From NCBI RefSeq assembly GCF_056746865.1, contig NZ_CM163382.1: a DNA stretch of 64,000 bases. One strand, given 5' to 3'. Below are positions 9,001 through 21,000 of the stretch, one piece after another. The first letter of the stretch is position 1. Each line of letters opens with the position of its first letter. Made by a program: the position numbers.

Positions 9001-12000
9001 CCCGCTAGAAATTGATTTCGATAAAGAGTACACCGAGTACAACTTAAACCCAGACACGCACGGGGCTGACCTGCGCCATGAGTTTGAGAAAACCGAATAT
9101 CGCGTCATGTTAGTCGCCAACAAGTTCCAAACGGGCTTTAATCAACCAAAACTGGTTGCCATGTATTTGGATAAGAAAATATCCGATGTAGAAGCGGTGC
9201 AAACGCTGTCTCGCCTAAACCGCACCTATCCAGGCAAAGACACAACCTTCGTGATTGATTTTGTTAACGATCCACAAACCATTCTCAATGCGTTCAAAAA
9301 GTACGACAAAGGCGCGCAGCTTAATGAAGTGCAAGATGTGAACGTCATCTATGACATCAAAGATATTTTGGATGAACAGAACATATACAACCATCAAGAT
9401 TTAGAGTTGTTTAAGCAAGCGCGTGGTAAATCGATTCTCGGCCAATCACCTGACAAAAAGTCACACGCGCACAAGAAACTGCTAGCTGCCACACAACGCC
9501 CTACCGATGTGTTCAACGTTAAGCTCAAAGAGCTGGTTGATGCTGCAAACCATTGGGATCAGCAATACAACAAAGCGCACCTTGCGGGTGATGAAAAAGC
9601 GGCGAACTACGCAGAATCTCAGCGCAGTGATTTCACCAAGCAGCGCGAAGCACTAATGCGTTTTAAGTCAGATTTAGCTCGATTTGTGAAGCACTATAGC
9701 TATATGAACCGCCCCGGGTTTCCTGGAGAGTGTTTTATCTGTGAACTCAGGCTGCCAGATCATCGTTTCCGATGGAAGCATAATAAGCTTTTTCTGCTTC
9801 TGCCGGAGGAGTATGGCCCAGCCTTCCCAGCAATCGTCGATTGTTATACCAGTCCACCCACGTTAGTGTGGCCAGTTCCACTTCTGCACGGTTTTTCCAG
9901 CTCTTACGGTGTATTACCTCCGCTTTGTAAAGACCATTGATGCTCTCAGCCATCGCGTTGTCATACGAGTCGCCTGTACTCCCTGTTGATGCCAGTAATC
10001 CGGCTTCTTTTAGTCGCTCCGTATAGGCCAGTGACACATACTGAGAGCCTTTATCGCTGTGATGGATGGTGCCAGACGGACGACGGGCCCACAACGCCTG
10101 CTCCAGCGCATCCAGCACGAATGTCGTTTCCATAGACGATGAGACCCGCCACCCCACGATGTATCCGGCAAACACATCAATGATAAACGCCACATAGACG
10201 AAGCCCTGCCATGTGCTGACGTAAGTAAAATCAGCCACCCACAGCTGGTCAGGTCGTTCTGCCACGAACTGACGGTTTACGCGGTCGCCTGCGGCAACGG
10301 CTTTCCGGCTGATGGTCGTACGGACCTTTTTACCCCGGAGAACACCGGCAAGTCCCATAACCGCCATGAGACGTGCCACTGTACATCTGGCCACCCTGAT
10401 TCCTTCCCGTAACAACTGACGCCAGACTTTACGCACACCGTACACCTGATGATTTTCATCGTATACGCGCTGTATCTCTCTCTTCAGCCAGTCGTCGTGC
10501 TGCGCACGGGCACTGCGTTTATCCGGATGATGTCGCTGTTGCTGACAATGGTAATACGTTGACGGGGCAATATGCAGTTCGCTGCATACCGGTCCGACCC
10601 CGTACTGCTCACGCAGCTTATCCAGCAGTGGCATCATTTTTTCCAGAGGCGGTCGAACTCCGCCTTCGCAAAATAAGCGGAAGCCTGGCGAAGGATATCG
10701 TTACTGCGGCGCAGTTCACGATTTTCACGTTCCAGCTCTTTCAGACGCTGACGTTCAGCGCTGGTGAGCCCACCATCACCGCCCCCGGTATCCCGCTCAT
10801 GCTGGCGAACCCAGACACGCAGAGTCTCCGGCGTACAGCCAATCTTTGGGGCAATGGAACAAATTGCCGCCCACTGTGAGTCATATTCATCCTGACTTTC
10901 CAGAACCATACGAATCGCCCGCTGACGGACTTCGGGGGAAAAACGAGTATTTTTAGTCATCCTGTTTACCTCTTTCTCAGGGAGTTTAGTCTCCAGGATT
11001 TCCGGGGCGGTTCAATATGGCGCAATTGATTGAGTTTGGTGATCCTGAACTGGAAAACTTTGCCGCGTTTGCTCATTTGCTATCACGTCGATTGAAAGGG
11101 GTAACACCAGAAAACATCGATCTCAGTGCACTGGTACTAGAAAAATTCAAAATCAAATACGACAAAGAGCCGCTTCCAGAAGCGTTTAATCAGGTACTTG
11201 AACCTATCCGCCCCAACTATAACGACCCTGCGGATCGTGAACAGGCATTTCTTGCCGATATCATTCGCCGCCTAAACGAACTGTTTGGCGATGTCGGCGA
11301 CGAACCCGGTCGCCGAAACTTTGCCAACGGTACTATTACGCGTGTCACCCAAAATCCAATTGTGGTTGAGCAGATAGAAAAGCACGACAAGTCGATTGCC
11401 CTCAAAGGCGACTTGCCGCAAGCGGTGAAGCAAGCCGTTGTGCAGGCTCTGCTGAAAGAAGGTGATATAGCCCGAACGCTACTCAAAGACCCACAAGTTA
11501 TGGCAAGTTATGTTGAGTTGATTTTTGACATGATGAAGCAAGGTGCAGAACAGGCGGCGGTGAAATAATGAATACTGCGTTTCGGGTTTTACTTACGTTC
11601 AATGCAACATCACTACTAGTGATTATCTTTGCGGTACAAAAAGGGTACTCACTCGGATATTTCTTTGGTGGTTTCGCTTGCTTCGATTGGATAGCAGCAC
11701 TTCCGAACGCAGTATCATATTTACTCTATTTTCTTATCCCTGTTTTATCGACTGGATTGAGTATTTGGCTGAGTAAGTATTTGGGTAAAGACGATTTTAA
11801 GGCGGGTGAAGTAGCGAGTATTGAGCATGCCAATAACAGCTTCCTACCAAGTTATTTGGGTTACTTTTTCGTGGCGTTGAGCATTGGTAACTGGGAGACA
11901 TTGTGGTTTGTTTATGGCGTTTTGTTTGTTTTTACTCTCTTATCGCAAGCACTCTACTTTAACCCATTGTTTTTACTGTTTGGTTATGAGTTTTATAACA

Positions 12001-18000: not shown

Positions 18001-21000
18001 TCTGTCTTAGTCTCAGGACATCAGCCGCAATACGCTGACTGCCAGACCAGAACAGGCCGTCCAGCGCAGTCACCAGCAATCCCGCCTCCAGCGCATACTT
18101 CAGCCGTTCACGGGGCACTTTCACTTCCCGGGCAATCTGCTGATAGGGTGATGATGTATTTTCATTCCCAACCATCCGGCGAATACGGTGAGACAGATGA
18201 TACCGGAATGCATCCGGCACACCGGAAAGACTGGCCTTCAGGCTGTACACGCAGCCAAATCGCTTATCGTTGAACACCACATTTTTCTGGCTGATATCCC
18301 ATTCTTCTCGAAGCGCAGCAATCAGCTGTGGCGTGCGGGTTAAAAGCAGACGAAAAGGCAGTTCAAAACTGGTGACGTAATCCACATTCAGCAGGGCAAT
18401 ACGCAGCCGTTCTTCTGGTCCGGCCTCTGTCTGCCGACACTCCTCCAGAACATCCTGCCACTGCTGGCAAAGGCGTGGAGATTCATTCAGTTCTGTAAAA
18501 CAATATTTATCCGCAAGATAGTCAATTTGTGCAGGCATACTGAAGAGAATTCCGTATAAAGATTCAGCAGACAAAACTTTATCAGTCAATAAGAATCAAC
18601 GGAAGCACAGAAGGTTCATACGTCCATCACCAACTGATTGTTGTCATAACGGGTAACATAAAGGACTGAACGACTGTTTGAACCGCCCCGGGTTTCCTGG
18701 AGAGTGTTTTATCTGTGAACTCAGGCTGCCAGATCATCGTTTCCGATGGAAGCATAATAAGCTTTTTCTGCTTCTGCCGGAGGAGTATGGCCCAGCCTTC
18801 CCAGCAATCGTCGATTGTTATACCAGTCCACCCACGTTAGTGTGGCCAGTTCCACTTCTGCACGGTTTTTCCAGCTCTTACGGTGTATTACCTCCGCTTT
18901 GTAAAGACCATTGATGCTCTCAGCCATCGCGTTGTCATACGAGTCGCCTGTACTCCCTGTTGATGCCAGTAATCCGGCTTCTTTTAGTCGCTCCGTATAG
19001 GCCAGTGACACATACTGAGAGCCTTTATCGCTGTGATGGATGGTGCCAGACGGACGACGGGCCCACAACGCCTGCTCCAGCGCATCCAGAACGAATGTCG
19101 TTTCCATAGACGATGAGACCCGCCACCCCACGATGTATCCGGCAAACACATCAATGATAAACGCCACATAGACGAAGCCCTGCCATGTGCTGACGTAAGT
19201 AAAATCAGCCACCCACAGCTGGTCAGGTCGTTCTGCCACGAACTGACGGTTTACGCGGTCGCCTGCGGCAACGGCTTTCCGGCTGATGGTCGTACGGACC
19301 TTTTTACCCCGGAGAACACCGGCAAGTCCCATAACCGCCATGAGACGTGCCACTGTACATCTGGCCACCCTGATTCCTTCCCGTAACAACTGACGCCAGA
19401 CTTTACGCACACCGTACACCTGATGATTTTCATCGTATACGCGCTGTATCTCTCTCTTCAGCCAGTCGTCGTGCTGCGCACGGGCACTGCGTTTATCCGG
19501 ATGATGTCGCTGTTGCTGACAATGGTAATACGTTGACGGGGCAATATGCAGTTCGCTGCATACCGGTCCGACCCCGTACTGCTCACGCAGCTTATCCAGC
19601 AGTGGCATCATTTTTCCAGAGGCGGTCGAACTCCGCCTTCGCAAAATAAGCGGAAGCCTGGCGAAGGATATCGTTACTGCGGCGCAGTTCACGATTTTCA
19701 CGTTCCAGCTCTTTCAGACGCTGACGTTCAGCGCTGGTGAGCCCACCATCACCGCCCCCGGTATCCCGCTCATGCTGGCGAACCCAGACACGCAGAGTCT
19801 CCGGCGTACAGCCAATCTTTGGAGCAATGGAACAAATTGCCGCCCACTGTGAGTCATATTCATCCTGACTTTCCAGAACCATACGAATCGCCCGCTGACG
19901 GACTTCGGGGGAAAAACGAGTATTTTTAGTCATCCTGTTTACCTCTTTCTCAGGGAGTTTAGTCTCCAGGATTTCCGGGGCGGTTCAAATACTGGGCGAA
20001 GGGAGATGTTATTGCGAAGCGCGCGCCAATTGGTCAGTGGGAACCTTATTCGGAAGAGTCACTACTTGGCATCATCGTCACCAGCGTCTGTCGTATTAAA
20101 GTCGCGATGCTAAAACCTGAACCTCCCAGAGATCCCCATATCCCGCTGATGGGGGATTTTAACTAAAACTTAGCGCTATCGCTGCGTATCGTAACTATCC
20201 CGTATTACGTAGCGTAAATTATGACGCCATACGGGGAACAAATACACAGAGGAAGAAAAAGATTAGATTGGTTTTAAGGGATGTTTTTATCATAAATGGC
20301 ACTGCTAAAATTATGAGATTATCGAAGATAAAATTCTTGATCATACATAAAAGGCCTCCTGAATTAAATCAAGAGGCGTATAGTTTTTACATTACTGATG
20401 TATGTTTAATGATCTCACTGATTTTCACTTTCCTGTCCTGCGATCTTGAAAGAGTGGCAGCATCAGCAGTAGCAATCGCCGACATGGCCGCCTCACCATT
20501 GAGAAGGTCAATATAATCTTCTTCAGGTTTTGCACCACAGAGGATATTATGGAGGAATAACGTCTCCTTTCTTATTAAACTGGCAAGCCATAATGGTGTT
20601 TTTTTTCCTGGATGACCATATGCTATAGCGCCATCCATTTCTGAGGTCATATTGCCTTTCCGACGATCATCATCTTCTTCTTGTGTTTCATGGACCAAAA
20701 AATGCTTTGTCTGACCGCCAATCCTAAGTGACCCTGCTGTTTCTTGCATATCAATTTTAATAGAGCCTTTAGTTCCATTGATGATGACATAATGTTCCGG
20801 CCAGTTAAATGCACTCCCCCACTCTAAGGTTGCTAGTTTTCCTGACGGGAATTCCAAGGTCATAAATAACATATCATCTTCATTGCCAAATCCTGGACCA
20901 GAATGGGCCAAATTTCCACCAATCATAGTAACCGTCTCTGGTATTTCTCCAAGTAAATGCTGAACACAATCTAACTCATGTATATGATGATATAGATGTC

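Follow-up and report, generated by a model that had tools for sequence, protein, structure and literature searches.

IS629 is an insertion sequence whose OrfAB protein arises by -1 frameshifting (bioRxiv 10.1101/2023.06.07.543989) and whose target duplications are 3-4 bp long; IS1203 is an isoform of it that differs from the Shigella type by about 4% (PMC3271280). In E. coli O157, matching flanks were found at only 21 of 47 IS629 sites (PMC3271280), and deletions adjacent to the element, ranging from a few nucleotides to more than 40 kb, occur with IEE (PMC9943667).

We analyzed a 64,000-nucleotide stretch of contig NZ_CM163382.1 (assembly GCF_056746865.1), hereafter the window, in which three IS629 copies lie within a defence island containing hsdM-hsdS-hsdR, a kwaA/kwaB-like pair, and rhuM. 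We consider it highly likely that the locus carries two recent, identical IS629 insertions and one older, defective copy with a swapped flank. Read from the sequence, this is ordinary insertion-sequence biology, and IS629 and its behaviour are already known.

Identity and anatomy of the three IS629 copies

A repeat search and a base-by-base alignment agreed on three IS629 copies, all in direct orientation on the minus strand, as an earlier note on this sequence had reported. Copy 1 occupies 9705-11014 (1310 bp; orfA 10634-10960, orfB 9747-10637), copy 2 occupies 13364-14673 (1310 bp; orfA 14293-14619, orfB 13406-14296), and copy 3, which is inherited, occupies 18679-19987 (1309 bp; orfA 19592-19933, 113 aa). 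On the basis of nucleotide identity, all three are the IS3-family element IS629, IS1203 isoform: the 1310-bp sequence of copies 1 and 2 is 100% identical to elements that RefSeq/PGAP, across many E. coli genomes, labels "IS3-like element IS1203 family", and the isoform name follows that labelling.

The element has TG...CA ends (TGAACCGCCCCGG...CCGGGGCGGTTCA), with terminal inverted repeats matching at 22 of 25 bases. OrfA matched HTH_Tnp_1 (PF01527, 2.4e-12), and OrfB matched HTH_21 (PF13276) and rve (PF00665), the latter at 9.3e-28. In copies 1 and 2, orfA and orfB share an ATGA overlap, orfB being in the -1 frame, and a simulated -1 frameshift in copy 1 yielded a 404-aa OrfAB transposase. 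The ALIL frameshift-stimulating element (Rfam RF01497) was detected on the minus strand of every copy: at 10563-10679 in copy 1 and 14222-14338 in copy 2, each at 121.5 bits, and at 19537-19652 in copy 3, at 115.7 bits with a gap in the A run. The duplications at this locus are 3 bp long: ATA for copy 1, AAG for copy 2, and GTT/GTT for the copy 3 insertion as it stands in SMS-3-5.

Copies 1 and 2 as recent insertions into hsdR and rhuM

Over all 1310 bp, copies 1 and 2 show no difference, and they encode the same OrfA and OrfB proteins. Perfect target duplications flank each of them: ATA at 9702-9704 and 11015-11017 for copy 1, and AAG at 13361-13363 and 14674-14676 for copy 2. The first interrupts hsdR after nt 2686 (codon 896 of 1078) and the second interrupts rhuM after nt 364. 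Defining the predicted empty site as the two flanks fused with the duplication kept once, at the left, we found exact empty sites for both insertions in CM2 and SMS-3-5, and in silico removal of the elements rebuilt hsdR and rhuM genes identical to those of CM2.

Neither the hsdR|IS junction nor the IS|rhuM junction was present in any of 5,426 complete E. coli genomes; the three-copy arrangement was likewise not found in that set, and the copy 1 junction was not found among GTDB species representatives. Strain 98232, the nearest relative, matches window positions 1-9706 at 100% identity and is among the genomes without either junction. As judged from these comparisons, copies 1 and 2 are recent, strain-specific simple insertions, "recent" being an undated term that reflects absence from the sample and zero divergence. 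The earlier note had read them as identical elements with identical ORFs and perfect duplications, transposed independently and recently into hsdR and rhuM; the alignment, the empty sites and the junction search bear it out on each point. An active IS629 would have generated both by copy-out-paste-in, each event creating its own 3-bp duplication, and the donor may have been a copy elsewhere in the genome, or one of the two may have been the parent of the other. An assembly artefact was rejected as an explanation.

Two identical direct copies bracketing a 2.3-kb segment could also suggest a composite transposon, in which IS629, the hsdR 3' end, the kwaA/kwaB-like genes, the rhuM 5' end, and the second IS629 arrived as a single unit. 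We give this practically no weight and regard it as refuted: the outer flanks are unlike, ATA standing to the left of copy 1 and AAG to the right of copy 2, each element has its own matching duplication, and relatives hold the inner segment contiguous with hsdR and rhuM, with both empty sites exact.

Copy 3 carries an inherited frameshift allele

Copy 3 differs from copies 1 and 2 at only three positions in the base-by-base alignment: two substitutions, C>A at 19090 and G>A at 19823, and the loss of one nucleotide from the T run. Both substitutions are synonymous. The shortened homopolymer spans 19611-19615 on the minus strand (five bases, A5 on the coding strand), as against six bases (A6 on the coding strand) at 10637-10642 in copy 1 and 14296-14301 in copy 2, also on the minus strand. 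The earlier note was thus correct that copy 3 had lost one T, but its position for the run, 19610-19614, is off by one nucleotide. It had also assigned the run to the orfA/orfB frameshift window; the run does lie in the orfA/orfB overlap, inside the ALIL element, but it is not the slippery motif itself, which the Rfam ALIL alignment and the translation place about 30 nt upstream as the conserved UUUUG of the family.

From its predicted effect on reading frame, the A-run deletion is the one change in copy 3 that impairs function. It leaves the orfB coding sequence unaltered but places it in the +1 frame relative to orfA, and a simulated -1 frameshift produced a 108-aa product, compared with 404 aa in copy 1. 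Because orfB is in the +1 and not the -1 frame, programmed -1 frameshifting cannot yield OrfAB from this copy, which is therefore predicted to be unable to make the transposase. With its ends intact, copy 3 would be mobile only if transposase were supplied in trans.

An identical 1309-bp allele is present in CM2, and the SMS-3-5 copy has the same 1-nt deletion together with the same G>A change. On this allele sharing, copy 3 is the older element and is vertically inherited; the earlier note's description of it as older and defective agrees with the shared allele and with the simulated shift. Single-base homopolymer errors are typical of long reads, and a sequencing or assembly error could in principle disguise a normal 1310-bp IS629 as copy 3. 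Such an error is very improbable and is refuted for practical purposes by the shared deletion across independent assemblies: it is linked to the same G>A in CM2, strain 165, and the SMS-3-5 assembly, and RefSeq labels the copy "frameshifted" in several independent genomes.

The closeness of the three elements and their common orientation would fit an origin of copies 1 and 2 as local-hopping daughters of copy 3. The alignment contradicts this, and we hold the chance to be slight in the extreme: none of the three copy 3 variants occurs in copies 1 and 2, which at those positions agree with the common active sequence, copy 3 is unable to make OrfAB, and in strain 98232 a neighbouring copy of the active type is one nucleotide different from copy 1. 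An active IS629 is the source we retain for copies 1 and 2.

The right flank of copy 3 has probably been replaced

Copy 3 is flanked by GTT at 18676-18678 and AAT at 19988-19990. In SMS-3-5, the copy 3 allele is flanked by an intact GTT|IS|GTT arrangement, a GTT/GTT state found in SMS-3-5 and at least 14 genomes, and four genomes have the empty GTT site with 100% identity over 600 bp. The right IS|yjhD junction of the window was found in 25 genomes. The right flank of the window copy lies inside yjhD, an unrelated gene whose sequence in K-12 runs uninterrupted across the junction point; the yjhD 3' remnant (19988-20166, plus strand) directly abuts copy 3 at its orfA-proximal end and is followed by ythA, nanY, and nanX. 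The K-12 annotation describes yjhD as a surface-adhesin E family protein.

The GTT/GTT state in SMS-3-5, the empty GTT sites, and the yjhD junction in 25 genomes together mark GTT as the ancestral flank and AAT as the derived one. From these comparisons, it is the right, orfA-proximal flank of copy 3 that was replaced, with the GTT side kept. The earlier note had taken the mismatched GTT/AAT flanks to mean that one of them was replaced, and the comparison with related genomes that it proposed now identifies which. It had also held that an intact duplication around copy 3 in relatives would speak against its reading; one exists, in SMS-3-5, but it confirms the flank replacement.

In the history we propose, copy 3 would first have inserted at the GTT site, beside an old IS3-family fragment, creating the GTT duplication, and one A would then have been lost from the A6 run in the orfA/orfB overlap. 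Later, in an ancestor of the 25 sampled genomes and this one, the DNA beside the orfA-proximal end would have been replaced, joining the IS to mid-yjhD with loss of a canonical Kiwa system and other genes at that flank.

Two routes to this replacement were weighed. The first, which we infer and slightly favour, is an IS-end-anchored deletion or rearrangement driven by transposase acting in trans, possibly helped by IEE. It requires a trans supply, since copy 3 makes no transposase of its own; enzymes of the IS3 family are generally regarded as acting preferentially in cis. The second is RecA-dependent homologous recombination between the GTT-flanked copy and a second IS629 lying in yjhD and bracketed by an AAT duplication; the product would take its left flank from one partner and its right flank from the other. 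We regard this second route as a serious possibility, at somewhat less than an even chance.

Its clearest support comes from strain 165, which has a mosaic IS at the same yjhD junction: all 85 differences from copy 3 fall within columns 1-895, and beyond them, starting at column 896, the sequence equals copy 3 throughout, with both the 1-nt deletion and the column 1146 A. Such a mosaic shows, at the sequence level, that copy 3 has undergone recombination with further IS629-type elements in lineages other than this one. Strain 201609 has an inverted isomer of the hsd module, and mismatched IS629 flanks are common (26 of 47 sites; PMC3271280), both of which also favour recombination. Against it, the reciprocal or precursor junction, in which the yjhD 5' part ending in AAT meets the IS left end, was found in none of the 5,426 genomes, and the column 933 deletion and the column 1146 A are each present in the GTT/GTT state and in the yjhD state. 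The same allele in both states means that any crossover would have to be confined to the final ~164 bp, unless the yjhD copy was a sister with the same defective allele. An hsd module with yjhD-nanXY nearby was not found in SMS-3-5 (49 kb downstream) or FORC_031.

Predicted consequences for the defence island

Copies 1 and 2 enclose the hsdR 3' end, the Kiwa-like kwaA/kwaB pair, and the rhuM 5' end. The hsdR 5' part (7019-9704, plus strand; 895 codons) reads on into the IS to a stop at 9940, and the predicted truncated HsdR ends at residue 895 of 1078 of the native protein, without the C-terminal 183 residues. The hsdR 3' remnant lies at 11015-11568 (plus strand); a 183-aa ORF at 11017-11568 was rejected as a separate gene and is part of this remnant. 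Next come a kwaA-like gene (11568-12122, plus strand; 184 aa; PADLOC KwaA match, 9.3e-16) and a kwaB-like gene (12122-12964, plus strand; 280 aa; PADLOC KwaB match, 7.1e-14), whose products had no Pfam match at 1e-3. They show the Kiwa gene order, a KwaA homologue and then a KwaB (DUF4868) homologue, adjacent and overlapping. Stop and start codons overlap between hsdR and the kwaA-like gene and between the kwaA-like and kwaB-like genes, which suggests hsdR-kwaA-kwaB translational coupling. The rhuM gene is split into a 5' part (13000-13363, plus strand; 121 codons) and a 3' part (14674-15347, plus strand), and the rebuilt gene equals the 1035-nt rhuM of CM2.

Copy 1 in hsdR is predicted to give a restriction-minus phenotype with methylation retained, and copy 2 would disrupt rhuM. 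A promoter scan, itself weak evidence, found no plus-strand consensus promoter between copy 1 and kwaA; from this and the overlapping codons, copy 1 probably lowers expression of the coupled kwaA/kwaB-like genes downstream. The strain is predicted to be restriction-deficient yet methylating for this type I system and to be without RhuM, and it may under-express the Kiwa-like pair too, which could leave it more receptive to foreign DNA and phage.

As direct repeats, the three copies would allow RecA-dependent recombination to delete 3,659 bp (copies 1-2), ~5,315 bp (copies 2-3), or ~8,974 bp (copies 1-3), making the locus structurally unstable. It is unlikely, in our estimate, that the IS629 pair was selected as an off-switch for stacked defence, with methylation kept and reversal possible given iee, or that it serves as a vehicle for the Kiwa-like genes. 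Were the former true, the switch would turn off type I restriction together with rhuM and the coupled Kiwa-like pair, and precise excision could undo it, provided the strain carries iee; under the latter, the copy 1-to-copy 2 unit could move or delete the Kiwa-like pair.

Copy 3 offers a worked example of IS flanks recording genome history, the recorded order being an empty site, a simple insertion, a flank replacement, and two new insertions nearby. The value of the locus lies mainly in annotation and strain biology, and knowledge of IS629 is unchanged.

Comparison with known systems

Copies 1 and 2 are alike in every feature to IS629/IS1203 of E. coli O157:H7, O111, and Shigella: a 1310-bp length, TG...CA ends, imperfect 25-bp inverted repeats, OrfA of 108 aa and OrfB of 296 aa in frames 0/-1, the ALIL element, and 3-bp target duplications. 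Copy 3 departs from known IS629 as a 1309-bp allele with A5 for A6 in the overlap, a change incompatible with -1 frameshifting.

The closest parallel to the flank history of copy 3 lies in E. coli O157, in the small structural polymorphisms associated with IS629 and the IEE-promoted deletions adjacent to it (Ooka 2009; Kusumoto 2011; both cited in PMC9943667). There, as at copy 3, an intact IS end abuts non-ancestral DNA, the target duplication is missing, and neighbouring genes are lost. Unlike the O157 cases, the copy 3 event is ancient and common to 25 genomes, and the copy is predicted to make no transposase.

The interrupted hsdR resembles other IS-inactivated hsdR genes of type I restriction-modification systems, which confer a restriction-minus, modification-plus phenotype and in which the C-terminal part of the R subunit is likewise lost and hsdM and hsdS remain intact. 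It differs from the usual case in having a coupled Kiwa-like pair downstream, so that a second defence system may be silenced along with the first.

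Structure of the three IS629 copies

A repeat search of the window returned three direct copies of the element in register, with their genes on the minus strand, and base-by-base alignment placed copy 1 at 9705–11014 (1310 bp), copy 2 at 13364–14673 (1310 bp) and copy 3 at 18679–19987 (1309 bp). Copies 1 and 2 are identical at every position. The flanks read ATA-IS-ATA for copy 1, AAG-IS-AAG for copy 2 and GTT-IS-AAT for copy 3; the alignment thus bears out the common orientation, the identity of copies 1 and 2, the two target duplications and the unmatched copy 3 flanks described in the earlier note.

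The termini are TGAACC...GGTTCA, and the inverted repeats match at 22 of the 25 terminal bases. The minus strand encodes OrfA (108 aa, HTH_Tnp_1) and OrfB (296 aa, HTH_21 and an rve integrase core), with orfB in the -1 frame and the two genes overlapping at ATGA; the Rfam ALIL frameshift element is present in all three copies (121.5, 121.5 and 115.7 bits for copies 1, 2 and 3). Many E. coli genomes carry elements, annotated by RefSeq as 'IS3-like element IS1203 family', that match copy 1 at 100% identity; IS1203 is described as an isoform of IS629 (PMC3271280).

Copies 1 and 2 are strain-specific insertions

In related genomes, the locus order is hsdM-hsdS-hsdR (1078 aa), two genes encoding 184 and 280 aa, and rhuM (344 aa). 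Copy 1 sits after nucleotide 2686 of hsdR, so that the 183-aa ORF at 11017–11568 is the hsdR 3' remnant, and copy 2 sits after nucleotide 364 of rhuM. The predicted empty sites of both copies are present exactly in strains CM2 and SMS-3-5, and when each IS is removed along with one copy of its duplication, the rebuilt HsdR protein matches its CM2 counterpart exactly and the rebuilt rhuM has the same nucleotide sequence as CM2 rhuM. Neither the hsdR-IS nor the IS-rhuM junction occurred in any of 5,426 complete E. coli genomes. The only two records spanning the entire 9400–15000 query carry intact hsdR and rhuM, and the closest relative found, strain 98232, matches window 1–9706 at 100% identity and lacks both insertions. 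Copies 1 and 2 are therefore simple, strain-specific insertions with zero divergence since insertion, in line with the recent, independent transpositions proposed earlier.

Two findings exclude a composite-transposon origin: copies 1 and 2 have different outer flanks, and in relatives the DNA between them runs on without a break into hsdR and rhuM.

A single-base deletion in copy 3

Copy 3 differs from copies 1 and 2 at three places: C>A at 19090, a one-base deletion in the T run (19611–19615 in copy 3; 10637–10642 in copy 1) and G>A at 19823. The point differences and T loss noted earlier were recovered, the run lying one base off the 19610–19614 first given. The coding strand in copies 1 and 2 reads ...UAUUUUGCG...CUCUGGAAAAAAUGAUG, and a simulated -1 shift at UUUUG or at the A run yields a 404-aa OrfAB. 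With the A5 run of copy 3, these -1 shifts lead to a stop after 108 aa, orfA is extended to 113 aa, and orfB is reachable only by a simulated +1 shift. Copy 3 is thus predicted to be defective, with the deletion as its sole lesion because both substitutions are synonymous. A sequencing error was rejected, as copy 3 of CM2 is identical and the deletion and G>A are shared by the SMS-3-5 copy and a mosaic element in strain 165.

Direction of the copy 3 rearrangement

Public genomes contain three states of the copy 3 site. A rebuilt 600-bp query found the uninterrupted target in four genomes at 100% identity; SMS-3-5 carries a simple insertion (GTT-IS-GTT), its type of right flank occurring in at least 14 genomes; and the window's right junction, in which the IS end is joined to AATACTGGG, occurs in 25 genomes. 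This junction falls inside yjhD, adjoining ythA-nanY-nanX, and K-12 is uninterrupted across that point. The three states show that the orfB-distal GTT flank is ancestral and the orfA-proximal AAT flank derived; the comparative data thus supply the direction of the rearrangement. The earlier note had inferred that one flank was secondarily created and had expected an intact duplication in relatives to tell against this. Such a duplication was found in SMS-3-5, yet together with the yjhD junction it upholds the inference.

The original right flank of empty-site and simple-insertion genomes carries an IS3-family fragment and canonical kwaA-kwaB, neither of which is present in the window. This second kwaA-kwaB pair lies just beyond the insertion site in relatives (23740–26673 of locus L002; 41382–42977 of locus L011); strain FORC_031 has it intact, and in SMS-3-5 it is interrupted by ISVsa5. 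The window lineage lost this pair with the replacement of the copy 3 right flank.

The flank may have been swapped by homologous recombination with a second IS629 in yjhD: the strain 165 IS at the same yjhD junction is a mosaic, divergent over columns 1–895 and otherwise identical to copy 3. However, the precursor yjhD junction was found in none of the 5,426 genomes, and the deletion and G>A, both near the yjhD end, also occur in the GTT/GTT state, so that any crossover would have to fall within the final ~164 bp, unless the yjhD element was a sister copy carrying that allele. Alternatively, an IS-end-anchored deletion may have replaced the flank. In the presence of IEE, a factor promoting them, deletions adjoining IS629 and reaching >40 kb are reported (PMC9943667; bioRxiv 10.1101/2023.06.07.543989), but copy 3 would require transposase in trans. 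The hsd module and yjhD were found in cis in no genome, the surroundings in SMS-3-5 and FORC_031 included.

Genomic surroundings

The hsd/Kiwa-like/rhuM module occupies islands at different tRNA genes (window 1–40746; loci L002, L009 and L011 in relatives): beside tRNA-Leu in SMS-3-5 and tRNA-Sec in CM2, with tRNA-Phe (40671–40746) nearest in the window; in FORC_031 the island lies beside setC. In strain 201609 (L006 4436–20372) the entire module lies in the opposite orientation to that in the window and is bracketed by two inverted copies of a 624-nt gene (window 17915–18589), which looks like an inversion isomer. Between mobI and this gene, a degenerate IS3-family transposase pseudogene (16160–17587), frameshifted with internal stops in RefSeq relatives, is kept in all relatives examined. 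IS629-type insertions have gathered independently nearby (L003 17059–18368; L010 7623–8836; L008 11561–12870), including one in mobI of strain 98232 (equivalent to window 15683), likewise with unmatched flanks, and one within the old IS3 pseudogene in Iso00225. SMS-3-5 has a second copy ~12 kb away in opposite orientation, 96% identical to copy 1.

A RelB/DinJ-type antitoxin-like ORF (3181–3687) lies directly upstream of hsdM, with no toxin gene annotated beside it in relatives. Two paralogous phosphoethanolamine-transferase genes (24455–25678 and 27408–28910), ~92% identical over 24576–24875 versus 27721–28020, enclose a Tia-like outer-membrane gene (26478–27233); the CM2 counterpart of the first is a RefSeq pseudogene (internal stop, incomplete). 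Window 30710–34925 matches, inverted, the strain 98232 DNA immediately left of window position 1 (the observation takes in window 1–~1160, 30299–30715 and 30710–34925). The match starts, by position, inside the 98232 IS2 copy, and an IS1-like fragment (30299–30715) adjoins the boundary, suggesting either an inversion mediated by IS elements or two islands joined as a mosaic. Next to the tRNA-Phe P4-type integrase (39310–40524), a cluster at 31569–39160 resembles a raffinose or sucrose operon (LacI-family regulator, 708-aa glycosidase, oligosaccharide MFS transporter, sucrose-6-phosphate hydrolase family enzyme, porin).

Predicted consequences for defence genes

HsdR is cut short at residue 895 of 1078 with hsdM and hsdS intact, which predicts loss of restriction with methylation kept. 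The first two genes after hsdR (11568–12964) have no Pfam match but match PADLOC KwaA (9.3e-16) and KwaB/DUF4868 (7.1e-14). TAATG overlaps join all five genes (hsdM, hsdS, hsdR, kwaA-like, kwaB-like), which suggests that a type I restriction system and a divergent Kiwa-like pair are fused in a single five-gene operon. Given these overlaps, and since a promoter scan found no plus-strand consensus promoter between copy 1 and kwaA, a polar effect of copy 1 on the kwaA/kwaB-like genes is plausible. RhuM, whose gene is disrupted by copy 2, matches the PADLOC candidate family PDC-S05.

If the direct repeats recombined, 3,659 bp (copies 1–2), ~5,315 bp (copies 2–3) or ~8,974 bp (copies 1–3) would be deleted; public genomes cannot show such products, since copies 1 and 2 occur in this genome alone. 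IS629 is reported to duplicate 3–4 bp of its target, with matching flanks at only 21 of 47 IS629 sites in O157 (PMC3271280). All of this, from the element itself to its defects and rearrangements, is well-known IS629 behaviour.
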